Shown: positions 3,743 through 42,048, counted from the first letter of the stretch. The stretch: 64,000 nt of DNA from Escherichia coli (GCF_044647545.1 NZ_CP172818.1), one strand, 5' to 3'. Numbers and translations are program-made. The notes: generated by a model from the sequence alone, not told the origin.

Positions 3743-4609
3743 TTACTCACCCTGTGGATCATGATATTCAACGCACGCCTGTAGCGTGTTTTCAATCAGC
3801 GTGGCAACCGTCATCGGGCCAACGCCGCCGGGAACAGGCGTAATGTATGAGGCGCGTTTAGCCGCGTCTTCAAACACGACGTCGCCCACAACTTTGCCAT
3901 TTTCCAGACGGTTGATGCCGACATCAATCACAATTGCGCCTTCTTTGATCCAGTCACCAGGAATAAAGCCCGGCTTGCCGACGGCAACGATCAGTAGATC
4001 GGCATTTTCTACGTGGTGACGCAGATTTTTAGTGAAACGGTGAGTCACGGTGGTGGTGCAACCTGCCAGTAGCAGTTCCATGCTCATCGGGCGGCCAACG
4101 ATATTCGATGCGCCAATCACCACGGCGTTGAGGCCGAAGGTATCAATATTGTAACGCTCAAGCAGCGTGACAATACCGCGCGGGGTGCAGGGACGCAGAC
4201 GCGGCGCGCGCTGGCACAGGCGACCGACGTTATAAGGATGGAAACCGTCTACGTCTTTGTCCGGATGAATACGTTCCAGCACTTTGACGTTATCAATACC
4301 CGCCGGTAACGGCAGTTGAACCAGAATGCCATCGATGGTGTTGTCGGCATTCAGCGCATCGATAAGCTCCAACAGCTCCGCTTCGCTGGTGGTTTCCGGG
4401 AGGTCATAAGAGCGGGAGACGAACCCGACTTCTTCACAAGCCTTGCGTTTGCTTGCGACATAAATTTGCGATGCAGGGTTACTACCCACCAGCACAACGG
4501 CCAGTCCTGGTGCCCGCAGTCCGGCTGCAATACGCGCCTGAACTTTTTGAGCAACTTCAGAGCGCACCTGCTGCGCAATCGTTTTACCGTCAATAATCTT
4601 TGCTGCCAT
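3743..4609 (-). CDS. folD: bifunctional methylenetetrahydrofolate dehydrogenase / methenyl-THF cyclohydrolase
   Basis: 288-aa ORF; recognised sequence. Confidence 0.94.
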
Positions 4610-5080
4610 CAGAGAGAGGATTCCATCTGTTACGTAGGTCGAAGGGGATGCGCCTATTTTGTCAGAAGCGGGGCGCGCTGTCAGGTTTCGTTTCAGATTT
4701 ATCGCGTGAAGCGACCTCTTGCGAAGGTGAGGCGCACCGTCGCTGAGATTGAAAGCTTCATTTTTCGTCCATGATGACGTTGTAAATCTGGAACTGATTT
4801 ATTTCCTTGTCTAAGGATTAAGATAATTTAAGAAATACCTGACAATATAAAAAGAATTTTCAGCCTGGTAATTTACCGCTTCAGGTCTATATTTGTGTTG
4901 AATATATTTTGCGCGGAAATATTCATCTAACGGGGCTCTCTATTTTTTAGAATAGAGTGCATATTTTCAATTAAGACATTCTTAGAGGATAAAAAGGAAT
5001 TTTACTACTATCAGTGTCTTAAATAAAGTAATCGGTTATATACGGATGTGGAGTCGATAAATGAGATTGAAGGAATATAT

Positions 5081-5623
5081 ATGAAATTAAGATTTATTTC
5101 GTCTGCGCTGGCCGCCGCACTATTCGCCGCTACGGGTAGTTATGCTGCCGTTGTAGATGGCGGTACAATTCACTTTGAAGGCGAACTGGTGAATGCTGCC
5201 TGTTCAGTGAATACTGACTCGGCAGACCAGGTTGTCACACTCGGTCAATATCGTACCGATATTTTCAATGCTGTTGGTAATACCTCTGCATTAATTCCAT
5301 TCACTATACAGTTGAACGACTGCGATCCTGTCGTTGCCGCTAATGCTGCCGTTGCATTTTCTGGTCAGGCGGATGCAATCAATGATAATTTATTGGCCAT
5401 TGCATCCAGTACTAATACAACAACAGCAACGGGTGTCGGTATTGAAATACTTGATAATACATCCGCAATTCTCAAACCTGATGGGAATAGCTTCTCAACC
5501 AACCAGAACTTGATCCCCGGGACCAACGTTCTTCATTTTTCTGCACGTTATAAAGGTACCGGTACAAGTGCATCAGCAGGGCAAGCAAATGCTGACGCGA
5601 CTTTTATTATGAGATACGAATAA
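5081..5623 (+). CDS. sfmA: type 1-like fimbrial major subunit SfmA
   Basis: 180 aa from MKLRFISS with signal peptide and fimbrial subunit C-terminus; ORF track begins 11 codons upstream. Confidence 0.85.
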
Positions 5624-5842
5624 TCAAAACCACGTTGTTTTGAATTATATATCACGTCTTATAACAAAGTAATGTACCGGTTGTCTGAAGCGGTATGGTG
5701 GCAATGTAAATCGAAATCACGCTCACTTTGTATCATGCCGCTTTATTAAATGAAAAGGGAATGATGTGTTGTAAGAAACCAAAGCAATCATTTCTTTATA
5801 CTCCTTATTTTTGCCGTCAGGAATACACAAGGCGTATTAACT

Positions 5843-6535
5843 ATGATGACTAAAATAAAGTTATTGATGCTCATTATATTTTATTTAATCATTTCGGTCA
5901 GCGCCCATGCTGCCGGAGGGATCGCATTAGGTGCCACGCGTATTATTTATCCCGCTGATGCTAAACAGACTGCGGTATGGATTAGAAATAGCCATACCAA
6001 TGAGCGCTTTCTGGTCAATTCGTGGATTGAAAACAGCAGCGGTGTAAAAGAAAAGTCATTCATCATTACACCGCCACTGTTTGTTAGTGAACCCAAAAGC
6101 GAAAATACTTTGCGTATTATTTACACCGGTCCACCGCTGGCGGCAGATCGTGAGTCTCTGTTCTGGATGAATGTTAAGACGATCCCTTCGGTAGATAAAA
6201 ATGCATTGAACGGCAGGAATGTTTTGCAACTGGCGATTTTATCACGCATGAAATTATTTCTCCGTCCAATTCAATTACAAGAATTACCCGCAGAAGCGCC
6301 GGACACACTCAAGTTTTCGCGATCCGGTAACTATATCAATGTTCATAATCCATCACCTTTTTATGTCACCCTGGTTAACTTGCAAGTGGGCAGCCAAAAA
6401 CTGGGGAATGCTATGGCTGCACCCAGAGTTAATTCACAAATTCCCTTACCCTCAGGAGTGCAGGGAAAGCTGAAATTTCAGACCGTTAATGATTATGGTT
6501 CAGTAACCCCGGTCAGAGAAGTGAACTTAAACTAA
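5843..6535 (+). CDS. sfmC: periplasmic fimbrial chaperone SfmC (PapD-like)
   Basis: 230-aa ORF with signal peptide; chaperone-usher operon context. Confidence 0.88.
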
Positions 6536-11597: not shown

Positions 11598-11674
11598 GCG
11601 CCCTTAGCTCAGTTGGATAGAGCAACGACCTTCTAAGTCGTGGGCCGCAGGTTCGAATCCTGCAGGGCGCGCCA
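11598..11674 (+). tRNA. argU: tRNA-Arg (anticodon UCU), ending in CCA
   Basis: 77-nt sequence GCGCCCTTAGCTCAGTTGGATAGAGCAACGACCTTCTAAGTCGTGGGCCGCAGGTTCGAATCCTGCAGGGCGCGCCA; cloverleaf-compatible; recognised argU. Confidence 0.95.
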
Positions 11675-11689
11675 TTACAATTCAATCAG

Positions 11690-12853
11690 TTACGCCTTCT
11701 TTATATCCTCCATAATTCCAGAGTGGGACATATTTGGGACATTATCACCAAAAATGTCGTCTATTTTCCTCGCATGCTCTGTCAAATGATTAGGCGCAAG
11801 GTGAGCATACCTACGAACCATTTCTATGGACTCCCATCCGCCCATTTCCTGAAGCACTGATAATGGGACGCCTGACTGAATCAGCCAGCTTGCCCAGGTG
11901 TGTCTGAGGTCATGGAAACGGAAATCTTCAATTCCTGCACGACGACAAGCTGATAGCCATGATGTCTTGCTGTCGATGCGCATCTTCCTGACCGCAGGCG
12001 TTGATGTTCCATCTGCTCGCTTAGCCGCCTTGGTATGTACAAACACCCATTTGTGATGCTTGCCTATTTGATCACGCAACACTTTACAGGCGGTATCGTT
12101 CAGCGCCACACCAATGGCGCGGTTTGATTTGCTCTCTTCTGGATTCACCCAGGCAACTCGTCGCTGCATGTCGATTTGTTGCCATTCCAGATTTATGATG
12201 TTCGACTTTCTCAGACCAGTTGCCAGCGCAAACTTGACGACAGATTTCAGTGGTTCGGGGCACTCATCAATAAGGCGTTTTGCTTCCTCCTTTTCCAGCC
12301 ATCTGACTCGCTTGTTTCTGACCGCTGGTATCTTGATGACAGGCGCTTTTTCCAGCCACTTCCAGTCGCGTTCTGCAGCACGGAGAATGGCCTTTATCAT
12401 GGCAAGATGCTTTGCCTTTGTCTGAGTTGATACTGGCTTTGGTTCATAAACAGGCAGTTCTTTACCTTTCCTGATGGCGGCCTGAACTTTCTGTTTCCAT
12501 ATTTCTTTCGTCTTTCTGTTATGCATTCTGCTTACAGCAGAGTAAATCTTTGCCTCCGAGATATCTTTAAGCCTTATACCCTCAAAATGTTCAAGCCAGA
12601 ACTCAATCCGGCTTTTATCTGAATCGAGAGATTTTTTATCAGCTTTTTCCTCAAGCCATCTTAGGCAGGCCTCTTCAAAAGTGACATCAGGTAAATCCCC
12701 TAGCTTTTCTACTCGCCAGAGTTCTGCTTTTCGCTTGTCGTGCAACTCCTGAGCTTGCCGCTTGTCCTTTGTGCCAAGAGATTCCTTAATTCGTTTCCCG
12801 CCCGGGAGCGAATACGAGGCATACCATATTTCATTTCTGCGGAAGAGTGACAT
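11690..12853 (-). CDS. intD: prophage tyrosine integrase
   Basis: 387-aa ORF 15 bp downstream of the tRNA; C-terminal R..HxxR..Y catalytic region ([13 protein letters not shown]). Confidence 0.9.
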
Positions 12854-12972
12854 TTTCTTTCCTCTGTTATGCCATCACCCGCGCTCACCTGGACAGTATG
12901 CAGCGGAGACTGAAGCGCCGCAATGCAGGCTTGCCGTGTTGTGAGGTACCCGGATATTATCGTGAGGATGCG

Positions 12973-13311
12973 TCATCGCCATTGCTCCCCAAATACAAAA
13001 CCAATTTCAGCCAGTGCCTCGTCCATTTTTTCGATGAACTCCGGCACCATCTCGTCAAAACTCGCCATGTACTTTTCATCCCGCTCAACCACGACATAAT
13101 GCAGTCCTTCACGCTTCATACGCGGGTCATAGTTGGCAAAGTACCAGGCATCTTTTCGTGTCACCCACATGCTGTACTGCACCTGGGCCATGTAAGCCGA
13201 CTTTATGGCCTCGAAACCACCGAGCCGGAACTTCATGAAATCCCGGGAGGTACGAGTATTGCCGGAAGCGCGGGCTGTATCCGGATGCAGAGTCTTATCC
13301 GTGGAAATCAA
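12973..13311 (-). pseudogene. exoD: lambda exonuclease (Exo) C-terminal fragment
   Basis: 112-aa ORF whose sequence ([50 protein letters not shown]...GFVFGEQWR) corresponds to the C-terminal part of lambda Exo only. Confidence 0.7.
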
Positions 13312-13349
13312 ACGCGCACTACTGGCTGGTTACCAACCTGTATCAGAAC

Positions 13350-13562
13350 ATGCGGGCCAATGCGTTGACTGACGCGGAATTACGGCGCAAGGCTGCCGAT
13401 GAACTGTCCTGTATGACCGCACGAATTAACCGTGGTGAGGCTATACCTGAACCAGTAAAACAACTTCCTGTCATGGGCGGTAGACCTCTAAATCGTGCAC
13501 AGGCTCTGGCGAAGATCGCAGAAATCAAAGCTAAGTTTGGGCTGAAAGGAGCAAGGGTATGA
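13350..13562 (+). pseudogene. peaD: lambda replication protein P C-terminal fragment
   Basis: 70-aa ORF ending ...AEIKAKFGLKGARV, matching the end of lambda P; no N-terminal part present. Confidence 0.6.
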
Positions 13563-13716
13563 CGGGCAAAGAGGCAATTATTCATTACCTGGGGACTCAT
13601 AAGAAATTCTGTGCGCAGGACGTTGCCGCGGTAACAGGCGCAACGGTAATCTGATCTTACCCAGCAATAGTGGACACGCGGCTAAGTGAGTAAACTCTCA
13701 GTCAGAGGTGACTCAC

Positions 13717-14016
13717 ATGACAAAAACAGTATCAACCAGTAAAAAACCCCGTAAACAGCATTCGCCTGAATTTCGCAGTGAAGCCCTGAAGCTTGCTGAA
13801 CGCATCGGTGTTACTGCCGCAGCCCGTGAACTCAGCCTGTATGAATCACAACTCTACAACTGGCGCAGTAAACAGCAAAATCAGCAGACGTCTTCTGAAC
13901 GTGAACTGGAGATGTCTACCGAGATTGCACGTCTCAAACGCCAGCTGGCAGAACGGGATGAAGAGCTGGCTATCCTCCAAAAGGCCGCGACATACTTCGC
14001 GAAGCGCCTGAAATGA
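13717..14016 (+). CDS. insE: IS3 OrfA (transposase N-terminal, helix-turn-helix)
   Basis: 99 aa from [15 protein letters not shown]; recognised IS3 OrfA. Confidence 0.88.
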
Positions 14017-14879
14017 AGTATGTCTTTATTGAAAAACATCAGGCTGAGTTCAGCATCAAAGCAATGTGCCGCGTGCTCCGGGTGGCCCGCAGCGGCTGGT
14101 ATACGTGGTGTCAGCGGCGGACAAGGATAAGCACGCGTCAGCAGTTCCGCCAACACTGCGACAGCGTTGTCCTCGCGGCTTTTACCCGGTCAAAACAGCG
14201 TTACGGTGCCCCACGCCTGACGGATGAACTGCGTGCTCAGGGTTACCCCTTTAACGTAAAAACCGTGGCGGCAAGCCTGCGCCGTCAGGGACTGAGGGCA
14301 AAGGCCTCCCGGAAGTTCAGCCCGGTCAGCTACCGCGCACACGGCCTGCCTGTGTCAGAAAATCTGTTGGAGCAGGATTTTTACGCCAGTGGCCCGAACC
14401 AGAAGTGGGCAGGAGACATCACGTACTTACGTACAGATGAAGGCTGGCTGTATCTGGCAGTGGTCATTGACCTGTGGTCACGTGCCGTTATTGGCTGGTC
14501 AATGTCGCCACGCATGACGGCGCAACTGGCCTGCGATGCCCTGCAGATGGCGCTGTGGCGGCGTAAGAGGCCCCGGAACGTTATCGTTCACACGGACCGT
14601 GGAGGCCAGTACTGTTCAGCAGATTATCAGGCGCAACTGAAGCGGCATAATCTGCGTGGAAGTATGAGCGCAAAAGGTTGCTGCTACGATAATGCCTGCG
14701 TGGAAAGCTTCTTTCATTCGCTGAAAGTGGAATGTATCCATGGAGAACACTTTATCAGCCGGGAAATAATGCGGGCAACGGTGTTTAATTATATCGAATG
14801 TGATTACAATCGGTGGCGGCGGCACAGTTGGTGTGGCGGCCTCAGTCCGGAACAATTTGAAAACAAGAACCTCGCTTAG
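14013..14879 (+). CDS. insF: IS3 OrfB transposase (DDE catalytic domain; normally made as an OrfAB fusion by -1 frameshift)
   Basis: 288-aa ORF overlapping insE; recognised IS3 OrfB. Confidence 0.88.
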
Positions 14880-15189
14880 GCCTGTGTCCATATTACGTGG
14901 GTAGGATCAACCAGCATAAATCAGGCTGCGGCTAAAATGGCACGGGCAGGTCTTCTGGCTATCGAAGGTAAGGTCTGGCGAACGGTGTATTACCGGTTTG
15001 CTACCAGAGAAGAACGGGAAGGAAAGGTGAGCACGAATCTGATTTTTAAGGAGTGTCGCCAGAGTGCCGCGATGAAACGGGTATTGAGGGTATATAAAAG
15101 AACATCAATGGGTACACAATGATGAAACAGGTGAGTTGAGTTCAAACTGTAGTACAATTCTCTCCAGTTTGAACAGGAAAGAATATTCT

Positions 15190-17762: not shown

Positions 17763-18312
17763 ATGAAAACACTTATCGTTTCAACTGTATTGGCATTCAT
17801 AACATTTTCTGCGCAGGCTGCAGCATTTCAGGTCACTAGTAATGAAATAAAAACAGGAGAGCAACTTACAACGTCTCATGTCTTTCTCGATTTGGGTGTG
17901 AAGGTGGTAATACATCGCCCTCATTAACCTGGTCTGGTGTTCCTGAAGGTACCAAAAGCTTTGCCGTAACTGTATATGATCCAGATGCACCTACAGGCAG
18001 TGGTTGGTGGCATTGGACTGTTGTTAATATTCCAGCAACAGTAACATATTTTCCGTTGATGCAGGGAGACGTGATGGAACAAAACTGCCGACTGGTGCTG
18101 TTCAAGGCCGAAATGATTTTGGCTATGCTGGGTTTGGTGGCGCATGTCCTCCTAAAGGAGATAAACCACATCATTACCAGTTTAAAGTATGGGCTCTAAA
18201 AACTGAAAAGATTCCTGTAGATTCTAACTCCAGCGGAGCGTTAGTTGGTTATATGCTTAATGCTAATAAAATCGCAACCGCTGAGATAACACCAGTTTAT
18301 GAGATAAAGTAG
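17763..18312 (+). pseudogene. ybcL: periplasmic PEBP/UPF0098 family protein with two frame breaks in this assembly
   Basis: Signal peptide MKTLIVSTVLAFITFSAQA; the protein is recovered across three frames with shifts near 17884 (T-run) and 18054 (C-run); corrected length would be 183 aa. Confidence 0.7.
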
Positions 18313-21458: not shown

Positions 21459-22653
<1,195 letters not shown>

Positions 22654-24971: not shown

Positions 24972-25342
24972 GCAGAGTCACCGCGATTATCTCCGCTCTG
25001 GTTATCTGCATCATCGTCTGCCTGTCATGGGCTGTTAATCATTACCGTGATAACGCCATCGCCTACAAAGAACAGCGCGATAAAAAAGTCAGTGAGCTGA
25101 AGCAGGCGACCGCCACCATTACTGACATGCAGCAGCGCCAGCGTGATGCTGATGCACTCGATGCTAAATACACGAAGGAGTTAGCTGATGCGAAAGCTGA
25201 AAATGATGCTCTTCGGCGCAAGCTTGATAATGGTGGTCGGGTGCTCGTCAAAGGAAAATGCCCTGTGCCATCCTCAGCCGAAACCTCCAGCGCCTCCGGC
25301 ATGGGCAATGATGCCACCGTCGAACTCAAAGACCGAGAATAA
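24968..25342 (+). CDS. rzpD: Rz-like inner-membrane spanin subunit (reading frame as it stands in this sequence)
   Basis: N-terminal transmembrane segment [21 protein letters not shown], coiled-coil-like region; frame terminates at 25342 while the following Rz-like C-terminal peptide lies in the +1 frame. Confidence 0.6.
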
Positions 25343-25445
25343 AAACTATCCAGTTAGCGACGAATATCTGGACCCAATTATCGCGACCAAAACAGCACTG
25401 AGAACGCTTCAGGAATTCATCAGGACGCAATGTCCTTCGAGATAG
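25188..25445 (+). CDS. rzoD: Rz1-like outer-membrane lipoprotein spanin subunit, +1 frame inside and extending beyond the Rz frame
   Basis: [12 protein letters not shown] lipobox, proline-rich PKPPAPPAW; true C-terminus uncertain. Confidence 0.45.
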
Positions 25446-25602
25446 CGATTATTTTACTCATCATTCCCTTCACATCTGGCTCTGTAGACAGTTCACTTCT
25501 GAAATCCAATAAACATCTCATTCTGATGCTTGATATTGAGCATTTTGCGCGCGGTAAGGGGCTGCGTTGAGATAAGAACCAGTAAAAATAAACCAGGATT
25601 TA

Positions 25603-25625
25603 GCCTCGCATTCGCGGGGCTTTTT
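25603..25625 (+). terminator. candidate rho-independent terminator of the lysis operon
   Basis: GCCTCGC ATTC GCGGGGC hairpin (7-bp stem with one G-U pair) followed by TTTTT. Confidence 0.5.
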
Positions 25626-25709
25626 ATTGCCATTACAAAAGCCACTTCCTACAGAGTGGCTTTGATAATGGTTTATACCCTACACGGGATAACTTAACTG
25701 ATATCCCTT

Positions 25710-25874
25710 TTAAAGGATAAAGGTATTCAAGCCTGACACATCATGCGCTGTATCGTCGCCGTATTCCCGTATTAACAGAGACCGTAGCCCGACGGGGAAC
25801 TCCTTCTGCGCGAGTGTGCGGGAATAATCAAAAACGATGCACACCGGGGTTACCGGGTACACATATTTCATCAT
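25710..25874 (-). CDS. hypothetical small ORF (54 aa)
   Basis: ORF MMKYVYPVTPVCIVFDYSRTLAQKEFPVGL...; no recognisable family; below ORF-track cutoff. Confidence 0.2.
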   Translation of the reverse strand: MMKYVYPVTPVCIVFDYSRTLAQKEFPVGLRSLLIREYGDDTAHDVSGLNTFIL

Positions 25875-25919
25875 GCCAGCGAGTCCGGTTCTGGCACGGA
25901 AGAAACCGGACGTTATGAT

Positions 25920-26330
25920 TTAGTGCGGAAATATTTGTGTAGTGTTCTGAATGTTCTCAGTAAAGAGTAATGAATTATCAAAGGTATAGTAATACCTTTT
26001 GTTTTCGTGGATATTTGTAATCCATCTGAAAACCCCTGCTGTAGCAAGATTTTTCCTGTATTCGTAAAATGATAACTCTCCTGATTTGAATCCTTTTAAG
26101 GTGGCTTCTATAAGGCATTTATTTTTTGAAAATCTTACATTTACAACCTTACCCTGTCCTTTTATTAAAACCGTATTATCGTTTTCAAGAACAAGATGAA
26201 TATTCTCTGTAGCTAAATAGTAAATGTAATGTGAGACATTGTGACGTTTTAGTTCAGAATAAAACCAGTGATAGTTTAAATTATTTCGCACTTTATCGAA
26301 TATTTGTTTAAAAATGGCAACCTGAGCCAT
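25920..26330 (-). CDS. ybcV: prophage protein YbcV (DUF1398-like)
   Basis: 136 aa from [31 protein letters not shown]. Confidence 0.75.
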
Positions 26331-26662
26331 TGTGGTACCTTCCATGTGATATGAGGGGCGTAGTCTGCACGATTATCTAAATTGCTTCAATCTGGTCTGA
26401 TTTTTGAGAATTTAAATAAGCAGATTAGAAGGGAAACGCTGAAATTCATGTTGTTTTCAATAAACAAAGAATGGACGAAAAATCATAAAGACAATACTGC
26501 CAGGACAGGTTAAAAACTATCTTAATACACATTCGATGGTTAGATGTTTAATCATGTATAGAACATCATACCTAAAATACTAAAAGCAAAAGAAACGAAG
26601 GAATCCTCTATAATTAATCTATCAAAGAAGAGAATACGTATCTGACTAAGAGACTAATCAAC

Positions 26663-26896
26663 TCAGCAATCCTCGTATTTAGGGAATACAATACGTCCAG
26701 TGTCACTCTTTTCTTTGTTTGCTTCAGGAGAAACTCTTTTTTCTGAGCACAGTCTCCGGCGGCAGGCTTCAATGACCCAGGCTGAGAAATTCCCGGACCC
26801 TTTTTGATCAAGAGCGATGTTAATTTGTTCAATCATTTGGTTAGGAAAGCGGATGTTGCGGATTGTTGTTCTGCGGGTTCTGTTCTTCGTTGACAT
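26663..26896 (-). CDS. ylcI: small DNA-binding-like prophage protein (YlcI/DUF3950-like)
   Basis: 77-aa ORF MSTKNRTRRTTIRNIRFPNQMIEQINIALDQKGSGNFSAWVIEACRRRL; start codon uncertain. Confidence 0.5.
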   Translation of the reverse strand: MSTKNRTRRTTIRNIRFPNQMIEQINIALDQKGSGNFSAWVIEACRRRLCSEKRVSPEANKEKSDTGRIVFPKYEDC

Positions 26897-27830: not shown

Positions 27831-28548
27831 CAGGCTGCGGCATTTTGTCCGCGCCGGGCTTCGCTCACTGTTCAGGCCGGAGCCACAGACCGCCGTTGAA
27901 TGGGCGGATGCTAATTACTATCTCCCGAAAGAATCCGCATACCAGGAAGGGCGCTGGGAAACACTGCCCTTTCAGCGGGCCATCATGAATGCGATGGGCA
28001 GCGACTACATCCGTGAGGTGAATGTGGTGAAGTCTGCCCGTGTCGGTTATTCCAAAATGCTGCTGGGTGTTTATGCCTACTTTATAGAGCATAAGCAGCG
28101 CAACACCCTTATTCCAGCTGGCTTCGTGGCTGTTTTCAACAGTGATGAGTCATCGTGGCATCTCGTTGAAGATCATCGGGGTAAAACGGTTTATGACGTA
28201 GCGTCAGGGGACGCGTTATTTATTTCTGAACTCGGTCCGTTACCGGAAAATGTTACCTGGTTATCGCCGGAAGGGGAGTTTCAGAAGTGGAACGGTACAG
28301 CCTGGGTGAAAGATGCAGAAGCAGAAAAACTGTTCCGGATTCGGGAGGCGGAAGAAACAAAAAACAGCCTGATGCAGGTAGCCAGTGAGCATATTGCGCC
28401 ACTTCAGGATGCTGTAGATCTGGAAATCGCAACGGAGGAAGAAACCTCATTGCTGGAAGCCTGGAAAAAATATCGGGTGTTGCTGAACCGTGTTGATACA
28501 TCAACTGCACCTGATATTGAGTGGCCTACGAACCCTGTCAGGGAGTAA
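27805..28548 (+). pseudogene. tfaD: fusion of terminase large-subunit N-terminal fragment to a tail-fibre assembly C-terminal fragment
   Basis: N-terminal ~100 aa match lambda gpA start ([28 protein letters not shown]...), C-terminal part matches Tfa (...[28 protein letters not shown]...). Confidence 0.75.
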
Positions 28549-31129: not shown

Positions 31130-32083
31130 TTAAAATGTGTACTTAAGACCAGCAGTAGTGATGAAGTTATAGTTTTCTATGCCTGCACCATTTTTGCTGT
31201 AGTCTGAAGTGTTATCATTGTGATCATAAAGTGAAGTATTACCTTTTTTATTCGTAACCCGATTCCATGCGCCTTCAACATAAACTTTTGCGTTAGGTGT
31301 TACGTAATAACCTGCATTGACTGCAACAGAATAGTAATTTTGGTCTTTGACTTTACTGCGATAAGTGATTCTTTTTCCTGGGTCATAGTGCTCATCGTTA
31401 TCAGATGCTTCCACCCAGCCGCTGTATTTAAATGTGCCACCTAGCTCAAAATCTTCATAACGATAACTTCCAGTCAAGCCAATGTAGGGCATTTTAAAAC
31501 GTTGTTTGTAGCCGATTGCTCTTTCTCCATTCGGGAAGGAGCCGATATCATCTCTGAATCCCTCCTCAGAACTGTAGATATAGGAACCACCTCTGGCTGT
31601 AAAGCTATAACGGCTTTCCTGATATCCGGCCATGAGTCCCAGGCGGTAATTGGGTTCGTTGAGGAGCCAGCCTTTGATATTCAGATCAAATTCGTTGGCA
31701 TAATTGAGTTGTGTATCAGGGTGCCTACTTTCATCTGTCCAGGTTCCGGGGTTACTGGAATCCATCCAGTCCTGATCGACCATATTGCCACCTCGGCTGC
31801 CGAGAGTAGTCCAGCCCGCAGCCCCAATAGATATCTGGGGCATCAAATCCCAATTAATTGCACCTTTAATAATTGCAGCGTTATTGAATTTCCAGTCGAG
31901 TTGACTGACTTTTCGGCCTCCTTCTTCGGCTAGATAAACACGCTCTTTTGTTTTTCCGCTCAGAGTTCCAAGACTAATGTCCGCATTTATGTTGTCAGGA
32001 GTAAACGATAAAGTCTCGGTAGAAGCAAAAGAGCTGATCGCAATAGGGGTTGTCAGGACTATTCCCAGAAGTTTCGCCCGCAT
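31130..32083 (-). CDS. ompT: outer-membrane aspartyl protease OmpT (omptin)
   Basis: 317-aa ORF; recognised omptin sequence. Confidence 0.93.
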   Translation of the reverse strand: MRAKLLGIVLTTPIAISSFASTETLSFTPDNINADISLGTLSGKTKERVYLAEEGGRKVSQLDWKFNNAAIIKGAINWDLMPQISIGAAGWTTLGSRGGNMVDQDWMDSSNPGTWTDESRHPDTQLNYANEFDLNIKGWLLNEPNYRLGLMAGYQESRYSFTARGGSYIYSSEEGFRDDIGSFPNGERAIGYKQRFKMPYIGLTGSYRYEDFELGGTFKYSGWVEASDNDEHYDPGKRITYRSKVKDQNYYSVAVNAGYYVTPNAKVYVEGAWNRVTNKKGNTSLYDHNDNTSDYSKNGAGIENYNFITTAGLKYTF

Positions 32084-32506
32084 AAAAGTTCTCCATTCAA
32101 TCGTTTTAATGATTGAATATGTATTTTTTATATCTAACTTAATGAGTCAATTACATATTGCTCCACTGTTTATATTTTGTTTAGTATTGAATGATTATCA
32201 CAATGCGCTATCTGTTTTTGGTTTAATTATCTGTTATTGTTTCATATTGCGGTTTTACTGTGTGGTTTTTTTATGCTTTTGTGGTGCTTTTATCTATTTA
32301 AGTGCCATGCCTTTAGAGGCATATAAGCGAAAATAGCATGAGGTTTATCCTCAATTACTATGTTTTTTAGTACAAAAAAGAGGGACAAAACTGAGACACA
32401 TAAGGCCTCACAATGGCTTGCAAGGCTTTACATGTTTTGAGGTAGTGGGACGTGTGAGCGCAGAGATGGCGCGGTAAGTTGTTGACTTAAAATGTCGTTC
32501 TAGGAA

Positions 32507-32551
32507 CTTCTAAGTCGTGGGCCGCAGGTTCGAATCCTGCAGGGCGCGCCA
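32507..32551 (+). repeat. 45-bp direct repeat of the argU 3' end marking the prophage right attachment site
   Basis: Identical to 11630..11674 (CTTCTAAGTCGTGGGCCGCAGGTTCGAATCCTGCAGGGCGCGCCA). Confidence 0.9.
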
Positions 32552-32595
32552 TTTCTTCTTCATTTAATCCCGTCTTATCCGTTCCGCTTTGCTCT

Positions 32596-33357
32596 TCACC
32601 ACATCACTTTTTGTCGCTGTTTGGCGAGATAATTCAACGGTGTCAGGCCGTAAAACGCCTTAAAAACAGAGATAAAGTACGACGTGCTGCTATAGCCACA
32701 TAATTGCGCCACCTGAGTGATATTTTTGTTATCCATCAATAACATCTGTACGGCGTAACGCATACGACACTCTGTGACAATCTGGCTATAGCTGGTATTT
32801 TCGTTTTTTAATTTCTTTTTGAGCAGGCTGGGGCTTAAACATAGCGAACTGGCGACAATTCGCAGATTCCAGTAATGCTGAATATCGCTTTGAATAATGC
32901 GGCAGACGCTGTCGCGGACGCTGCTGCGTAAGATATACATCAGTAGGGCAATAAACCGCGATTGCTCAAGAAAGTTAGACAATACGGTAAAAAGCAATGC
33001 GCGCGTCAACTCCGCTTCGCAGGGTTTGCTGGGTTGCTGCTTGCTGTGGTTGGCGGCTAGCCGGAACACTTCCGGTGTACGGCTATGACAAGCGATAACC
33101 GGGGTTGCCAGCCGCGACCAGGGCTTTATACAGGTTAAGTTCTTATTTAAAAACAACAGATAATCGTTGATGATGTTACGGTTGATGTGGGTGATTAATA
33201 CGTGATTTAACGTTGAGAGTTCAATGACGTTATTGTTGCACGCGAAGGCGGCCAGGTAGTTTTTCGGAAGGGTAAACGTAGCATGGTTATTGACGCTTAC
33301 CTCTACCTCTTTTTCGGTCAGGATCACCACGCAAGGTTCACTGCTGCTCAATTGCAT
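32596..33357 (-). CDS. envY: AraC-family porin thermoregulator EnvY
   Basis: 253-aa ORF with C-terminal AraC helix-turn-helix. Confidence 0.88.
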   Translation of the reverse strand: MQLSSSEPCVVILTEKEVEVSVNNHATFTLPKNYLAAFACNNNVIELSTLNHVLITHINRNIINDYLLFLNKNLTCIKPWSRLATPVIACHSRTPEVFRLAANHSKQQPSKPCEAELTRALLFTVLSNFLEQSRFIALLMYILRSSVRDSVCRIIQSDIQHYWNLRIVASSLCLSPSLLKKKLKNENTSYSQIVTECRMRYAVQMLLMDNKNITQVAQLCGYSSTSYFISVFKAFYGLTPLNYLAKQRQKVMW

Positions 33358-33539
33358 TTCGCACTCCTCAGATATCAGAAACTCCGCTCAAAGGATCTAT
33401 GCTTCCTGCATGAGTGATCGGCCCGTTCGCCGATAACGATCTTCTTTCTTTAGCACGCTTTTTAGCAATTAATCTTGATGGAATTCTGACGAGAGCGAAA
33501 GAGGTAAGCCAGGTCGTACCCGACTTACCTGGAGGAGAT

Positions 33540-34430
33540 TTAATACTCGAGAATGCCGTGCGCGACGGGCAAATAGCGCAGAGAGAAATAGAGCGTGTCT
33601 TTACCGCAAGAGGAACGTTTCGCTAACAGCGAGGCAATTTCTGCGTCCGGTTTCGGTTTCGCTGTAAAGGTTTTGCCTTTGCCGGCGACAAACAGTTCAT
33701 AAACAATGCCGCTTGCTGGGGCGGAGCTTTGGCAATCGGCGCTGGCCTGTAGATAACGTTCACGCTGTTCAGCGGTCAGTTTATCCACGCCGCTGCCATC
33801 CTGTACCCAGACATTAACGCCGGTTGCTTTAACGTGTTCCAGCAGTTGGCGATAGCCATCGGGCGACATGTTTCCGGCGAAAAAACTACTGATATAAACC
33901 GGTTTTGCTGAAACATCGCTAATCAACCGCTGCGCGTTGTTTAACCATGTTAGCAAAGGCTGACGGGCGGCTTCGCTGCGCCAGTTCAGGTCGTCAATTT
34001 CCGCGCTGATGTACCAGCCATCCGGCGTTACGCCAGGTACGGCGCTCCATAATCTGGCTTGCTGGAGATCGGCAGCCAGCAGGCGGTTAAGATAGCTTTC
34101 CAGCGCTGCAGACGACTGTTTCTGGTGCATAAAAAATTCCGGATCGGCATTCAGCCCGACAATCAGCTTCAGGCCAGCCTGTTGCGCAGCTGCGGCACGC
34201 TTAAACAATAACGCGTGCTGTTCTGGCTGGGTGAATGCATCGCCGTAACGAGTCCATTGCAAAACCAGGGTATCGAAGCCTTGCAAACGTAACTGACTCA
34301 TCAGCCCCTGCCACTGGGTATCGGTAACCTGACTATCACGGTTTTGTGGTTGCCAGATAATACCTTTCATCGCAAAGGAAAAAGGGCTGACCAAAAGCAG
34401 TGTCAGCAATACGAAAATGAACTTACGCAT
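33540..34430 (-). CDS. ybcH: secreted DUF4434-family protein YbcH
   Basis: 296-aa ORF with signal peptide; abuts nfrA stop. Confidence 0.8.
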   Translation of the reverse strand: MRKFIFVLLTLLLVSPFSFAMKGIIWQPQNRDSQVTDTQWQGLMSQLRLQGFDTLVLQWTRYGDAFTQPEQHALLFKRAAAAQQAGLKLIVGLNADPEFFMHQKQSSAALESYLNRLLAADLQQARLWSAVPGVTPDGWYISAEIDDLNWRSEAARQPLLTWLNNAQRLISDVSAKPVYISSFFAGNMSPDGYRQLLEHVKATGVNVWVQDGSGVDKLTAEQRERYLQASADCQSSAPASGIVYELFVAGKGKTFTAKPKPDAEIASLLAKRSSCGKDTLYFSLRYLPVAHGILEY

Positions 34431-37403
34431 TTACCAGTGCACTCCAATGGTGAGAAACGCATTGTTGCGCTCTCCGTTACGTTGATTAATCGCCTTAAAG
34501 GTATGTTGATACTCGACGCCGAGACTGACTTTGTGCGGCCAGGCGTCGTAGTGCGTCTCGCCGGTCCAGATATTCCAGCGGACCCCGACACCGCCAAGCT
34601 GCGCGCCCTGAGTGCCTTTATCACGATAGCCGTTGTCCTGAACGTGAGCGTAAGGCTCAATAGTCTGTCCGTTAGCTACCTTCTGATGCCAGCTGACGCG
34701 ATAATCTGCCGTCCACGCCTGAATATCCTGGCGGATATATTGCGCTGCATCGAGGTACAGGTTTTGGGCAAACCAGCCTGAACCGTTCGGGTGCCATTCG
34801 TCGCTGTATTTGCCGCCATTAAAGAATGAGGCGCTGGCGCGCAGCATGGTATCGGATGCGCCATTTTGCCCGTTCAGCGGCAACTGCTGTTCGACGGCGA
34901 GGAAAAAGATCTGATCGCGCAGCGGCTTCCAGCGCAGACCGGTGCCGGACATCGGATTTTTCACCGGCATCATCACCCCGTTTTCTCCAGTATCGGCAAA
35001 TACACGGCTGTAAACCGAGAGCAGGTCGCCTTCCAGCAGCATATTGCGTCCGATGCGATACTCGGCTTCCAGTTGCCCGTAGCTACGATAGCTTTTCCCT
35101 GGCGCTGCGCCGCCGACATTATTGTTAGCGGTACTTATTGCGCCGGAACGCAAGCCGATAGAAGAATCGAAACTGAACGTCCAGCGGCGACCGACCTCCT
35201 CATGCAGACGGCGGAAATTGAAGCGTTGCTGATTTTGCTCTGGGGTCAGTGGGGTTATCAGCGCCTGATTATCAATGTCATCAATCACCAGCCGGGCGTA
35301 GTGCTGCGTCGCAGGCATGTCATCCAGACGCTGGTTCACGTAGGCCAGTTGTCGGATAAGTGCCGGATCGTCCGGTAGCCCTTTATGCGCCTGTTCGAGC
35401 ATTTCCCGCGACTGTGCGATATCACCGCTATCCCACAAGGCGTAACCGAGCGCTGCCTGGGTGTTGCTATTATTCGGTTCCAGTTCCAGCGCGGCGCGCA
35501 AATCACTCACCGCCGCCGGGACATTATGACGTTGGCGATAAATTGTCGCCCGCGCAACGTAAGCGTTGGCAGAAGGCGCAATATTGATTGAGCGCGTGAG
35601 ATCGTTCAGTGCGAGTTCCGGCTGACCAGGAATGTAACGTTGCGCATGCAGCCACCAGTAGAGGGCATTGTTTCCCAGCCCACGTTGTTCTGCCTGCTGA
35701 AGCCAGCGATCGCGAGCCGCACCATTTCCTGCCGCCTGGGCGGTATTGGCAGCAGCAAGCAGATCCTCATTGCTCATGTCGTGAAGACTGATTTTCTGCC
35801 AGGCCGCCAGTGCGGTGGCGTAGTCCTCAACCTGATACGCCTGATAGGCTACCGCACGATGTTGCCAGGCGTTCGGTTGTCGTTGTTCGGCCTGAAGCCA
35901 TGCATACAACGCCACACCGGGTAGCGTGTCCCGATAACACTTTGCCAGACGGTTCCAGGCGGCGGCATCGTAGGAAGGCGACATATCGCCCAGCAAGCGA
36001 ACTATTGCCGGGCAATTATCTGCAATACCCGGCAACTGACTTTGCCACTGACGTTGCTCCGCCAGCGGTAAAGGTTTCGATAAAATCGCCACCTTCGCCG
36101 GCGTTGCCAGGTAAGGATGACTTTCCAGCAGAGACGCCAGTCGCGCCATTAACGTCTGGCTGACACGCGCATCGCCCTGGAAAGGATAGCGTTGCAGCAA
36201 TAAATCGGCAGCTTCGCGTGACTGCTCGTTCTGCATCAGTTGCCAGGTCAGTTGATCCAGGCGGGTAAGATTTGCCGGTTCTTGCTGATACAGCAATCGT
36301 GCCAGACGCAGAGCTTCAGCCTTGTTATGGGTCGCTACGCTAACGGTATAACGCTCCTCAAGCATTTCATTGGCGGGGAGGGTGGCGAGCAGTTTTTGCG
36401 CTGCGTCGTACTGACCTTCTTTTAACAGCACCGGTAGCGTCGCGCCAACAACATACTGGCGGTTATCGGCAAACTGTACCGTATAATTCGCCAACGCCTG
36501 AACGGGGTTGACGCTGTATTTAGATAACAGATAGAGCCAACTTTTCTCTTGTGCGTCCGTGGTAAACAGCGGCTTATTTTCAATGAGATAATGCTGGAGG
36601 CGCGCTTTTTCGCCACGATAAGCCAGCGCGGTCGCGTAAGTAATATATGACTGAGGATCGGTGAAGATCCCCTGTGATTGCAGCGCCAGGATCCGATCAT
36701 CCAGCTGCGCGGCAAGAAGCACGTCAAACCACTGACGGCGTTCTGCCGCGCTTAATGTGTTCTGCTGGCGTGCTTCATTATATAGCGTATCTGCCTGGGA
36801 CCATTGTTTCAGGTAGATTGCGCGTTGCAGCAGATCGGTTCGCAACGTTTTTCCTTCCGGCGATGCAGCAAACGTCGCATCGTTTAGTTGCGCTCTGGCG
36901 ACAGGTAATTGTGCCAGCCGCAGGGCATTCTGCCCGACTTCACTGCGACAACGCAGGGTCGGCGCAGCGTCGCACGCTTTTTGCTGGGCAAGCAGTTCTT
37001 CAACAGTCGTAACGCTTTTCACTTCAACTGGAATAGCCGCCAGACTGCGCTCAAGTCGGGCATCTCCTGGGTGACGTTTCAGTTGATCCTCAAGCAACAG
37101 CCGCGCCCGGTCATCATGACCAAAATGGCGATAGGCTTCCGCAAGGTATAAAGTCAGCGGAATATTATCCGGCACCTGCTGGTGTATATATTCAAATTCG
37201 CGGATGGCGGTTGCTTCGTCGTTATTTTTCTGTGCCTTCAGCGCCTTGTCGAGACGGGGATAAATAACGAAATGGCGATAATCGCTCAGCCCCAGCTCTT
37301 CTGCGCTGGTGCCGATATTGTCTGCGAGTGCGCTGGTACTCAATAAAGACGTCAGCAGTAAACCAGACCATCCGATGACGCGATTAAGGTTATTCTCCTT
37401 CAT
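34431..37403 (-). CDS. nfrA: phage N4 adsorption protein A (TPR-repeat outer-membrane protein)
   Basis: 990 aa from MKENNLNRVIGWSGLLLTSLLSTSALA; overlaps nfrB stop. Confidence 0.9.
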   Translation of the reverse strand: MKENNLNRVIGWSGLLLTSLLSTSALADNIGTSAEELGLSDYRHFVIYPRLDKALKAQKNNDEATAIREFEYIHQQVPDNIPLTLYLAEAYRHFGHDDRARLLLEDQLKRHPGDARLERSLAAIPVEVKSVTTVEELLAQQKACDAAPTLRCRSEVGQNALRLAQLPVARAQLNDATFAASPEGKTLRTDLLQRAIYLKQWSQADTLYNEARQQNTLSAAERRQWFDVLLAAQLDDRILALQSQGIFTDPQSYITYATALAYRGEKARLQHYLIENKPLFTTDAQEKSWLYLLSKYSVNPVQALANYTVQFADNRQYVVGATLPVLLKEGQYDAAQKLLATLPANEMLEERYTVSVATHNKAEALRLARLLYQQEPANLTRLDQLTWQLMQNEQSREAADLLLQRYPFQGDARVSQTLMARLASLLESHPYLATPAKVAILSKPLPLAEQRQWQSQLPGIADNCPAIVRLLGDMSPSYDAAAWNRLAKCYRDTLPGVALYAWLQAEQRQPNAWQHRAVAYQAYQVEDYATALAAWQKISLHDMSNEDLLAAANTAQAAGNGAARDRWLQQAEQRGLGNNALYWWLHAQRYIPGQPELALNDLTRSINIAPSANAYVARATIYRQRHNVPAAVSDLRAALELEPNNSNTQAALGYALWDSGDIAQSREMLEQAHKGLPDDPALIRQLAYVNQRLDDMPATQHYARLVIDDIDNQALITPLTPEQNQQRFNFRRLHEEVGRRWTFSFDSSIGLRSGAISTANNNVGGAAPGKSYRSYGQLEAEYRIGRNMLLEGDLLSVYSRVFADTGENGVMMPVKNPMSGTGLRWKPLRDQIFFLAVEQQLPLNGQNGASDTMLRASASFFNGGKYSDEWHPNGSGWFAQNLYLDAAQYIRQDIQAWTADYRVSWHQKVANGQTIEPYAHVQDNGYRDKGTQGAQLGGVGVRWNIWTGETHYDAWPHKVSLGVEYQHTFKAINQRNGERNNAFLTIGVHW

Positions 37404-39627
37404 TTTCGGACTCCAGTTGCGCAACCTTTTCTGTGTTTAAACCTGCTTTGAGTAATAGTGATTGCATCGAAACTTGTAATTCGCGTTGAATTGTCAGAAC
37501 GCGATCCAACGTTTCCTGGCTGATAACGCCTTCGGTGACCAAAAACTTGCCGAGCGGCAGAGAACTGCGTTCATGGTGCAATAACAACACGTTAATTGCT
37601 GAACGATTAATATGACCGAGCGTGGTCAGTATTTCGGCGAACAGGAACTGATGCGGCACATATTGCCGCCAGATTTCACCGGCCTGCTGTTCCGTGAGCC
37701 ACTGATGCTGAACCGCATTGTACAACATTGCCCGCGGATCGTGACCGCGTCGGCGCGCATACCAGTGGCGTAACCCCGTGACAATTTGTCCCCGCAGAAC
37801 AATGACGTAACGCACTTTGCGTCCGACTTTACGCGTCAGGGCCGCCAGCGAAACCGGGTCAATACCATCTTCACTGCCGACAATTAACTCATCATTTTCC
37901 AGACGCAGCGGCAGCACTGCATAATGCAGCGCCACGGAGGCCGGCATCTCGGCAATCAGTGATGAAGGGATCTGCCAGGCGTCGATCGACTCCCACGCCA
38001 CGCCGTTTTGCTCTGCCAGCGCCTGTGCCAGCTGCTCGGCGCTAATCAGCCCCTGCATCAGCATTGAACCGCCAAGGCGTAGACCTTCGACGCGATTACG
38101 CAGTGCTGTATCGAGTTGTTCTTCAGTGATGACCTGATTTTCCAGCAGAATTTGACCTAACGGGCGCAACGAGCGGGTATCGCCAGTCACGCTGGGGAAG
38201 TCATGCGTTGTTTTATCCCACGCCACGCGACGTGGATCGCCGTGTTGAAGTACCTGTTTTAACGCGCGCCAGTTGGCCATGAAGTTAATCAGGTTGCCCC
38301 AGAAAAGACGCAGGACAGATAGTAGCCCCTGCGTCAGGCCGTAGTAGCCAGTGACGAAAATCACCCGCTGCACGATGCGGTTAACCATCAAGCCAAAGTT
38401 TAGCCACAGCAGGGTCATTAACCATGCGCTGCCGCTGAAAATAGAAAGGAAATGCCAGGCATCGGGCCACAAACTTTCATACGCCAGTAACAGCAAAAGC
38501 TGGATCATCACCAGCATCGCGAGGAAGCTGACAAAGTTACTGATTGCCCCTTTGCGGTCGCGCCAGAGAAAGTAGTTCAGCGTCAGGCTGGAGGTCCATT
38601 TGTGGGTTTTAAAGCCCTGGAAAACAATGCCGATGATCCAGCGAGATTTTTGTCGAACCGCCGTCGAAAAGGTATCGGGGAAATATTCGCGCACGCAGAT
38701 CATGTTTGACGTCCGCGCGTGCTGTAAAAATTTACGCTGCTCGCGTTCTTTGGCTTCGTCCACCACCGGAAAACGGACAAAAATTTCCGTCATACCTTTT
38801 TCTTTCAGGCGGAAACCAATGTCGTAATCTTCAGTAAGACTCTGCACGTCGAAAGCAATACCGTCACCGTCAGCTAACAGTGCGGTCACGGCGCGGCGGC
38901 TGAAACAAGTACCGACACCTGCGCTGGGCACCTGTCCGGCGAGGGCTTCACGCACCGGAACATCTTTGCCATGCAGTTCTGAAAACTCATCAATGTAAGT
39001 CATGCTGGTGAAGTGCGTCCATTCGCGTTCGAATGGGTATACCGGGATCTGAATCAGATCTTTACGCTCGACCAGATAGTTGAACAGACGCAATTCCATC
39101 GGTGAAATTACGTCTTCGGCGTCATGCAGAATAAAACCAGCAAAAGCGAAATTGGCGCTACGCTCAAACTGGGTGATGGCGTCCAGCACGTTGTTCAGGC
39201 AGTCGGCTTTGCTGGTGGGGCCAGGACGCGCGCAGACTACCTTATGCACGTTTGGGAAGCGAGCGCACACTTCGTCAACATCACGCTGAGTATCGGGGTC
39301 GTTGGGGTAGGTGCCAACAAAGATATGATAGTTTTCATAGTCGAGCGTGGTCGCCGCCAGCTCGGCCATATTGCCGATGACGCCCGTTTCATTCCACGCC
39401 GGAACCATAATCGCTAACGGTTTTTCATCTGGTTTATACAGTTCGCGGTAACTCATTCGCGGGTAGCGGCGATAAACACTCAACTTGCGTTTAATGCGGC
39501 GTACCCAGTAGACGACATCAATAAAAAAATCGTCCAGCCCGCTGATGAACATGATGACCGCTAACGTTATCGCGATTACTTTTAAGCCATATAGCCAGGT
39601 TGCAAAAACATCAAGAAGCCAGTCCAC
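37390..39627 (-). CDS. nfrB: phage N4 adsorption protein B (inner-membrane glycosyltransferase family 2)
   Basis: 745-aa ORF with N-terminal transmembrane segments and glycosyltransferase domain. Confidence 0.9.
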   Translation of the reverse strand: MDWLLDVFATWLYGLKVIAITLAVIMFISGLDDFFIDVVYWVRRIKRKLSVYRRYPRMSYRELYKPDEKPLAIMVPAWNETGVIGNMAELAATTLDYENYHIFVGTYPNDPDTQRDVDEVCARFPNVHKVVCARPGPTSKADCLNNVLDAITQFERSANFAFAGFILHDAEDVISPMELRLFNYLVERKDLIQIPVYPFEREWTHFTSMTYIDEFSELHGKDVPVREALAGQVPSAGVGTCFSRRAVTALLADGDGIAFDVQSLTEDYDIGFRLKEKGMTEIFVRFPVVDEAKEREQRKFLQHARTSNMICVREYFPDTFSTAVRQKSRWIIGIVFQGFKTHKWTSSLTLNYFLWRDRKGAISNFVSFLAMLVMIQLLLLLAYESLWPDAWHFLSIFSGSAWLMTLLWLNFGLMVNRIVQRVIFVTGYYGLTQGLLSVLRLFWGNLINFMANWRALKQVLQHGDPRRVAWDKTTHDFPSVTGDTRSLRPLGQILLENQVITEEQLDTALRNRVEGLRLGGSMLMQGLISAEQLAQALAEQNGVAWESIDAWQIPSSLIAEMPASVALHYAVLPLRLENDELIVGSEDGIDPVSLAALTRKVGRKVRYVIVLRGQIVTGLRHWYARRRGHDPRAMLYNAVQHQWLTEQQAGEIWRQYVPHQFLFAEILTTLGHINRSAINVLLLHHERSSLPLGKFLVTEGVISQETLDRVLTIQRELQVSMQSLLLKAGLNTEKVAQLESENEGE

Positions 39628-39776
39628 ACAAAAACCTTACATTAACGCTGGTTATGTTTAGGGTGGCGTATATTAAAGTTTTTTATGAATTGTGACAGCT
39701 TTTTATCATTAATAGGTAGGATTATTGCGGCACGTTATTTTTACACTGGTTATAAAAGTTGCCGATTGCTGAAGGA

Positions 39777-41219: not shown

Positions 41220-41892
41220 CCGGCACCTCAAGCATATAGCCCACGCCGCGCACGGTCTGAATCAGCTTCGGCTCAAAGTCGTTGTCGATTTTGCCGCGTA
41301 GCCGCTTCACCGCCACATCAATGGCGTTAGTGTCGCTGTCGAAATTCATGTCCCACACCTGCGAGGCGATAAGCGAGCGGGGCAGCACTTCACCCTGATG
41401 GCGGAGGAAAAACTCCAGCAAAGTAAATTCTTTACTGGTCAACGTGATGCGCGTGCCGCTACGGGTGACTTTGCGGCTGACGAGATCGACCATCAGATCG
41501 GCAACCTGAAACTGACTTTCGATAATCACCGCCGCCCCGCGCCGCAGTAGAGTGCGCACCCGCGCCAGCAGTTCAGCAAAAGCGAACGGCTTAACCAGAT
41601 AGTCATCCGCCCCCAACTCCAGCCCCTTGACGCGATGTTCAATGGTGCCAAGCGCGGTAAGCAACAGAATCGGCATCCCCTTATTGGCGGAACGCAACAT
41701 GCGCACGATATCCCAGCCGTTCACGTCCGGCAGCATAATATCGAGGATTATCAGATCATAATCACCGGTCATCGCCAGATGGTAGCCATTCAGCCCGTTG
41801 TCGGCCAAATCGACCACAAAACCGGCTTCGGTTAACCCTTTGGTCAAGTATTCTCCGGTTTTCTTTTCATCTTCGACAATCAACAGTTTCAT
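41209..41892 (-). CDS. cusR: OmpR-family response regulator CusR
   Basis: 227-aa [19 protein letters not shown]...; receiver plus winged-helix domains. Confidence 0.93.
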
Positions 41893-41957
41893 ATTTCCTC
41901 CGCATGTTGCCCGGGCAATTCTAGAGTAGCGGGATCAGATGGCAATCGCTTATTGGC

Positions 41958-41979
41958 AAAATGACAATTTTGTCATTTT
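41958..41979. promoter_or_regulatory. CusR box palindrome AAAATGACAATTTTGTCATTTT in the cusR-cusC divergent promoter
   Basis: Perfect 22-bp palindrome seen in sequence; matches the known CusR operator. Confidence 0.7.
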
Positions 41980-42048
41980 CCTGTCACCGGAAAATCAGAG
42001 CCTGGCGAGTAAAGTTGGCGGCATAAAATCACCAGAAATTATGAGCCT

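Follow-up and report, generated by a model that had tools for sequence, protein, structure and literature searches.

The window analyzed here, a 64-kb stretch of Escherichia coli DNA, carries the gene order sfmD-sfmH-sfmF-fimZ-argU, after which a prophage begins. The tRNA-Arg(UCU) gene argU (11598–11674, plus strand), which was predicted by ARAGORN, matched the Rfam tRNA family, and occupies the same relative position in MG1655, is the integration target. The prophage is bounded by a 50-bp direct repeat that corresponds to the 3' end of argU and encloses an element of 20.9 kb. A repeat search located the left copy (attL) at 11627–11676 and the right copy (attR), identical at 49 of 50 positions, at 32504–32553, where the alignment to Escherichia phage Turner (PP925837), a lambdoid phage isolate that has a DLP12 backbone and is the closest intact relative, stops at the attP of that phage. 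Immediately downstream of argU lies intD (11690–12853, minus strand), an intact open reading frame for a 387-aa P22-type tyrosine integrase (Pfam Phage_integrase, E = 5e-47), which shares 99.7% amino acid identity with both the IntD of K-12 and the integrase of Turner.

Beyond the left arm, the element contains emrE-ybcK, the nin region, quuD, nmpC::IS5, essD-rrrD-rzpD, nohD, tfaD, appY, and ompT, and the window is colinear with the argU-ompT interval of MG1655. This colinearity was assessed by blastn (97.3–98.5% identity) and by tblastn of K-12 proteins, with the exceptions that borD and ybcW are absent and that ybcL (17763–18309), intact in K-12, is spread over three reading frames and is a pseudogene here. 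The segment at approximately 25213–26733 (Rz-bor-ybcV-ybcW) has also been replaced, being either 83% like K-12 or wholly unlike it. The genes that were kept thus include an intact integrase, the nin region, the late regulator Q, a lysis cassette, and the accessory genes emrE, ompT, and appY. Rfam matches were found to the IS009 RNA in the tfaD region of the prophage (28307–28505, plus strand) and, outside the prophage, to the sok antitoxin RNA (53997–54153, plus strand) and the ES036 sRNA (55098–55139, minus strand). Based on the integration site and its repeat, the integrase, the colinear content, and the series of gene remnants described below, the element is identified as a cryptic lambdoid prophage of the DLP12 type at argU, with the locus in question as its left arm.

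The left arm consists of the pseudogene series xis'-exo'-P'-ren::IS3 with the same junctions as in K-12, and both joints align without gaps. The exo remnant (exoD; 12973–13252, minus strand), recognized by blastn, tblastn, and Pfam, comprises Exo residues 135–226 and the stop codon. Its presence as a minus-strand, C-terminal fragment ending at 12973 had been proposed in the first-pass annotation and is confirmed by tblastn of lambda Exo against the window (E = 9e-59), in which the match ends with the exo stop codon at 12973–12975, and by Pfam YqaJ, of which the Exo piece matched only positions 117–149 of 150 (the last 33). When the window was aligned to lambda and Turner at the DNA level, the homology block containing exo' (12947–13252, equivalent to Turner 3761–3456) was 98.0% identical to lambda and 97.4% identical to Turner. 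The catalytic domain is incomplete, as the region of D119, E129, and K131, which we take to be the catalytic residues of lambda Exo, is deleted and the remnant begins just after it.

On the opposite strand, the P remnant (peaD; 13251–13562, plus strand), delimited by tblastn, alignment, and Pfam, comprises residues 131–233 of replication protein P and the stop codon (13560–13562). The tblastn search with lambda P returned E = 2e-64, and the P piece matched only positions 96–162 of the 162 positions of Pfam Phage_lambda_P (PF06992). The P/ren homology block (13251–13649, equivalent to Turner 46281–45883) is 100% identical to Turner, 94% to K-12, and 92.7% to lambda. The remaining P is not full-length, and no in-frame start codon precedes residue 164. 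Although the P fragment had been thought to start at 13350, this position is merely the first in-frame ATG, and the homology to P begins at 13251. The two remnants directly abut each other, as had been recognized earlier, and their homology blocks share the dinucleotide TA at 13251–13252 (“junction B”). Alignment of the parental sequences to the window shows that they part from it exactly at this TA, on either side of the junction, and the same joint is present in MG1655. Since both the sequence of the joint and its annotation are the same in MG1655, the exo'/P' joint is the known exoD/peaD junction of DLP12, here in a non-K-12 background.

The P fragment is followed by ren, as previously noted, but only the first 30 codons (13559–13648) are present before an insertion sequence interrupts the gene. 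The 5' fragment of ren, together with the left copy of the target duplication, occupies 13559–13651 on the plus strand (tblastn match to ren residues 1–30) and corresponds to fragment 1 of renD in MG1655. It is followed by IS3 (13652–14909, plus strand), which carries the insE and insF open reading frames and is 100% identical over 1259 bp to the IS3C region of MG1655, at the same site. The 3' fragment of ren (14910–15122, plus strand) was identified by tblastn, is 100% identical to the ren of Turner, and corresponds to fragment 2 of renD in MG1655; from 14909 onward, the window aligns to Turner from 45884 downward. The trinucleotides flanking IS3, ATC on the left (13649–13651) and ACC on the right (14910–14912), are the same in K-12 and probably go back to a target duplication of 3 bp in which one position was later substituted. 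The position of IS3 in ren, 400 bp to the right of the exo'/P' joint, raises the question of whether the element created the joint through an adjacent deletion or through recombination between two IS3 copies. However, the target duplication on either side of IS3 (ATC/ACC, one mismatch) and the 400 bp that separate the element from the joint make such a role unlikely. Moreover, ren is continuous across IS3 in comparison to Turner, as is characteristic of a simple insertion; neither joint contains or touches an IS sequence, and no relative was seen with an IS3 end at 13252 or 12948. An IS3-mediated deletion was accordingly rejected as very improbable.

The 119 bp between the start of int (12853) and the stop codon of exo (12973) are not a simple spacer. 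The interval 12854–13651 had been interpreted as one deletion scar; the exo'/P' joint is indeed the main scar, but a second one at 12947/12948 had been overlooked, together with the truncated xis within 12854–12972. The xis remnant (xisD; 12709–12948, minus strand) was recognized by comparison to an open reading frame of Turner and by Pfam, and represents the C-terminal 79 codons (residues 45–123) of a 123-aa P22-type excisionase. The remnant itself has no Pfam match, whereas the full open reading frame in Turner has an HTH_17 domain at residues 6–36; residues 1–44 of Xis, including this DNA-binding domain, are deleted in the window. The Turner record has no annotation for the open reading frame of the 123-aa P22-type excisionase (approximately 5000–5370, plus strand; HTH_17 E = 1e-8), which overlaps the start of int, and the 56-aa CDS0014, which is annotated there in another frame, is probably spurious.

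At the second scar (“junction A”), xis' is fused to DNA located just downstream of exo through another 2-bp TA overlap (12947–12948), and the alignments to Turner, lambda, and the natural isolate AST19 all break there. The left side of the joint, containing attL, int, and xis' (11627–12948), is equivalent to Turner 6438–5117. On the right side, a 24-bp remnant (12949–12972, minus strand) between the joint and the exo stop codon is the 5' end of an orf60a/DUF1317-like gene (Turner 3761–3736, lambda 31322–31347). Approximately 1.36 kb was lost relative to Turner; this segment (positions 3762–5116) includes the 5' part of xis, a DUF4222 gene, and genes similar to orf60a, orf63, and orf61. The AST19 sequence matches the window at 99.86% identity as far as 12948, beyond which it runs on into the genes that are deleted here, and this departure at exactly 12948 provides an independent confirmation of the breakpoint.

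The breakpoints and the content missing between them are directly visible in the alignments. At junction B, approximately 5.4 kb is missing relative to Turner, the record of which is circularly permuted so that the gap extends from 3455 through the ends of the record to 46282, and approximately 8.3 kb is missing relative to lambda (approximately 31628–39971). The content lost relative to Turner comprises the 5' part of exo, bet, gam, three regulatory genes, which encode a CI-like product (PHROG “transcriptional repressor”, E = 5e-73), a cro-like repressor, and a cII-like activator, and further O and the 5' part of P. The interpretation that the whole immunity and early region is deleted is borne out, as Turner has all of the missing parts in the corresponding order and only C-terminal pieces of Exo, P, and Xis remain. 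The first-pass annotation listed the lost genes from lambda as bet, gam, kil, cIII, N, rexAB, cI, cro, cII, and O. This list is correct for the lambda interval 31628–39971, which covers all of these genes as well as the operators of pL and pR, the nut sites, and the iterons of the origin within O, but for Turner neither rexAB nor an N homologue is annotated, and the loss relative to this phage is approximately 5.4 kb rather than 8.3 kb.

Protein searches agree with this absence. The whole 64-kb window was searched by tblastn with 23 lambda and 19 Turner proteins, including those of int, xis, all of the b-region, red, kil, cIII, N, rex, cI, cro, cII, O, P, and ren. The only matches were to int, exo', P', ren, the tail of the Turner T14 open reading frame that overlaps xis', and a weak match to orf60a/T08 across junction A (E of approximately 1e-4, 27–29% identity, 12725–12976). 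No homologue of cI, cro, N, cII, cIII, rexA, rexB, O, or the CI-, cro-, and cII-like genes of Turner was detected by tblastn in the 64 kb. Pfam searches of the other sizeable open reading frames of the prophage identified the YbcK serine recombinase, the AraC-type regulators YbcM and AppY, NinB-like and YbcO proteins, Phage_antitermQ (QuuD, E = 1e-50), DUF1398, DUF3950, and a methyltransferase, so the only regulators are Q, YbcM, and AppY; no HTH_3/Peptidase_S24 repressor and no O-type replication initiator was present among the prophage open reading frames scanned. A promoter and terminator scan of 12700–13750 yielded nothing beyond the expectation from shuffled sequences, and no Rfam RNA family was found in the scar. 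Since all bases of 12854–13651 are assigned to remnants, the interval could not accommodate a repressor or an O-like gene, and no such coding sequence was detected in 12854–13650. The first-pass claim that the prophage has no repressor, no N, and no replication origin is thus upheld by the tblastn and Pfam scans and by the full assignment of the interval.

Two further lesions lie outside the left arm. IS5 interrupts the porin gene nmpC at approximately 21464–22653, and at 28110–28112 a fragment of the terminase large subunit is fused to a tail-fiber-assembly fragment through a TAT overlap. The 22 kb of Turner that contains the head and tail genes (12913–35031) has no counterpart in the window. 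Among the components of an inducible prophage, the element retains Q (E = 1e-50) and intact homologues of essD, rrrD, and rzpD, whereas CI, cro, the operators, and the antiterminator, O, the origin, and an intact P, the DNA-binding domain of Xis, and the head and tail genes are missing. From this gene content, we infer that the prophage is not self-inducible and would undergo at most very rare excision by Int alone. Excision of DLP12 still occurs in K-12, in fewer than 1 per 100,000 cells (PMC3105296), and the lysis operon of the prophage is both conserved and transcribed (PMC7918800). The R, Rz, and nu1 genes of DLP12 are functional once recombined into lambda (PMC3945230), and phage 434B contains a 5.5-kb segment of DLP12 (PMC9119081).

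Junctions A and B occur together in 319 of the 5426 complete E. coli genomes. Of the scar-bearing genomes listed, the majority are laboratory strains of K-12 or assemblies that resemble K-12, and the identity value of MG1655 is shared by most. An exact 37-mer over junction B was absent from the GTDB species representatives, although variants with a SNP would escape such a search, and among metagenome contigs it was found on one 4.64-Mb contig, 12.5 kb of which match MG1655 with 99.96% identity. The near-absence of the 37-mer elsewhere suggests that the joint is confined to the K-12-type lineage of DLP12. The RefSeq genomes BHUCD02 and PD007, which are recorded as “complete”, were left out as evidence; they have mixed exo'/P' haplotypes on chromosomes within approximately 100 bp of MG1655 and are suspected to be reference-guided consensus assemblies. 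The chromosomal flanks in the window differ from K-12 by approximately 2%, and the best identity among the 5426 complete genomes is 97.8% for the scar region and 98.8% for nfrA-cusS (36000–42000). The host thus has no close match among these complete genomes, and yet its DLP12 is of the K type and has both insertions, IS3 and IS5, in common with it.

The identity of the prophage to K-12 is patchy, with int, IS3, IS5, and ybcM at 99.8–100% and parts of nmpC and the Rz-ybcV region at 80–90%. Patchiness of this kind (80–100%), together with the highly mosaic nature of lambdoid genomes, could indicate that the joints are boundaries of mosaic modules or assembly artefacts that connect unrelated phage fragments. 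However, the fragments are cut in the middle of genes and domains while the ancestral order and orientation are kept, and both joints are found again in the finished MG1655 genome as well as in hundreds of assemblies that are independent of one another. Moreover, P continues normally upstream in 117 of the 118 viral contigs that contain the sequence just to the right of the joint, the single exception being a contig with a break at nucleotide 389 of P. Such an origin is even less probable than an IS3-mediated one, to the point of being almost negligible.

Within the left arm, the remnants differ from K-12 to a greater extent than the integrase gene. Over 12948–13649 and 14910–15122, the exo' remnant is 97.4% identical to MG1655 (2.6% divergence) and P'/ren is 94% identical (approximately 6%), whereas int is 99.85% identical (0.15%) and the junctions are identical. 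The P'/ren alleles of the window are 100% Turner-type, as is the exo' allele of K-12, and the exo' allele of the window is 100% identical to full-length exo in other strains. Since the remnants have diverged while int has hardly changed and the junctions are identical, later recombination is indicated rather than the simple vertical descent of one scar. For fixed junctions and IS sites combined with swapped alleles, the best explanation appears to be that homologous sequences were later exchanged with other lambdoid phages within blocks delimited by boundaries of heterology. Recombination between DLP12 and infecting phages has been published (PMC3945230) and fits this reading of the alleles.

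Loss of the immunity and replication region is not restricted to the K-12 type. An intact P-ren-emrE arrangement is present in approximately 1000 genomes, whereas the E. coli C/AST19 and PSS-07 types of prophage, which share the argU site, int, and the ren-emrE-ybcK backbone, have the immunity and replication region deleted with the right breakpoint in P. In the E. coli C/AST19 type (35 genomes; AST19 locus 12092–12700), a truncated dam-like methyltransferase gene is joined to nucleotide 460 of P, and in the PSS-07 type (locus 5137–6223), DNA beyond gam is joined to nucleotide 480, compared to exo' joined to nucleotide 391 in the window. The AST19 and PSS-07 loci examined have a ren without IS3 and an uninterrupted porin gene. 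In addition, a prophage beside ybhC in F3_13_1_3 (locus 5658–6318) has P broken at nucleotide 389. A hot spot of breakage in P was considered on account of these four independent breaks (nucleotides 389, 391, 460, and 480), but a general hot spot found no support, as all but one of the 118 viral contigs have a normal P upstream of nucleotide 391.

Two colinear deletions in a Turner-like ancestor, followed by the insertion of IS3 and a separate 22-kb deletion, would almost certainly account for the fixed, dead DLP12 of the window, and no direct evidence speaks against this history. The ancestor, reconstructed from its relative, would have had P22-type int-xis beside lambda-type exo-bet-gam, an immunity region, O-P-ren, emrE, and ybcK. 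We infer the order and mechanism of the events as follows. Two nearby deletions would have arisen by illegitimate recombination at sequences that share only the dinucleotide TA. The deletion at 13251/13252 would have removed the 5' part of exo, bet, gam, the pL/pR operator region including the genes for the repressor and the cro-like protein, cII, O and the origin it contains, and the 5' part of P. The deletion at 12947/12948 would have removed small accessory genes (approximately 1.36 kb) together with the N-terminal, DNA-binding part of Xis. IS3 would later have split ren, and the separate 22-kb deletion (approximately 28110–28112) would have taken the head and tail genes. The end product is a chromosome-fixed prophage that has lost its repressor, early promoters, antitermination, initiator and origin, excisionase, and virion genes. 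Both joints have colinear flanks, a 2-bp overlap, and no IS or att sequence, a pattern that illegitimate recombination typically leaves behind. An overlap of 2 bp is barely beyond chance, so the overlap does not identify the mechanism, be it end joining, replication slippage, or topoisomerase error.

Some features of the joints would also be consistent with a single concerted event, such as serial switches of template in the course of replication or repair, perhaps directed by a feature of the sequence. The parental sequence at both left breakpoints (12941–12948 and 13245–13252) is GAGGTA/A, both joints use TA, and the retained exo' island between junctions A and B is only 306 bp; GAGGTAA occurs only five times in the 48-kb Turner genome when both strands are counted. 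On the other hand, the third large deletion joint (28110–28112) has TAT without GAGGTA, and the shared 6–7-mer may be a coincidence after allowing for the multiple ways of looking. To our knowledge, no enzyme targets GAGGTAA, which further weighs against a concerted event. No intermediate forms were found, and the genomes consequently provide no information on the order of events. Taken together, the GAGGTA/A shared by both left breakpoints is probably coincidental, and a concerted origin of the two junctions is unlikely, though it deserves more weight than an origin through IS3 or through mosaic assembly. A more elaborate version, slightly less likely again, would combine one sequence-directed event that made both scars with subsequent block-wise overwriting of the remnants by gene conversion from passing lambdoid phages, for which junction A, junction B, and the ends of IS3 would be the boundaries of heterology. 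If this were true, the left arm, although dead, would serve as an active interface for recombination instead of being inert debris.

The scar marks the element as DLP12 and has little importance beyond correct annotation. It explains why the prophage is a fixed, presumably non-inducible resident in which emrE, rusA, the Q-lysis cassette, ompT, and appY act as host genes. The locus has modest value for the study of prophage domestication, as the free-living Turner defines exactly what was lost, and as at least three lineages of DLP12 have lost the immunity and replication region with differing breakpoints; the remnants also appear to go on exchanging sequence with other lambdoid phages. Only mildly new are the reconstruction against an intact relative, the scar that truncates xis, the swapping of alleles at fixed junctions, and the parallel deletions elsewhere.

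In comparison to known systems, the closest counterpart is DLP12 of K-12. The annotation of MG1655 gives the order intD, xisD, exoD, peaD, renD/IS3C, emrE, and ybcK through to ompT in an interval labeled “cryptic prophage DLP12”, with the pseudogenes xisD (b4633), exoD (b0539), peaD (b4508), and renD (b0542::IS3C). The window has in common with MG1655 the integration site, both junctions to the base, IS3 in ren, IS5 in nmpC, and the deletion of the head and tail genes. In other K-12 genomes, the automatic NCBI annotation (PGAP) likewise has an “exonuclease, missing N-terminus” that abuts a “replication protein P, missing N-terminus”. Lindsey et al. (1989) reportedly described, next to IS3, a P22-like int, an incomplete xis, and parts of exo, P, and ren of lambda. 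The first description of DLP12 is attributed to Lindsey, Mullin, and Walker (J Bacteriol 1989), as cited in passages of PMC6379469 and PMC7918800.

Lambda (J02459) has the same gene order and orientation as the window, with 98% DNA identity in exo' and approximately 93–96% in P'/ren, but its own int and xis are not P22-type and its exo–P interval includes rexAB and N. Turner is closer, with 99.8% identity in int, 98–99.8% in the int-attP-ompT module, and 99.7–100% in P'-ren-emrE, and is colinear with the window in ybcK, the nin region, Q, the porin gene, the lysis genes, and nohD. Its integrase is 387 aa, like that of the window, and is encoded next to an attP with a fragment of argU and ompT. 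Turner has no IS elements, and its porin gene is uninterrupted, while a Bor-like lipoprotein gene and terminase genes are present. It also has what the window lost, including xis, the accessory genes, full exo-bet-gam, the immunity genes, O, P, and the 22 kb of head and tail genes.
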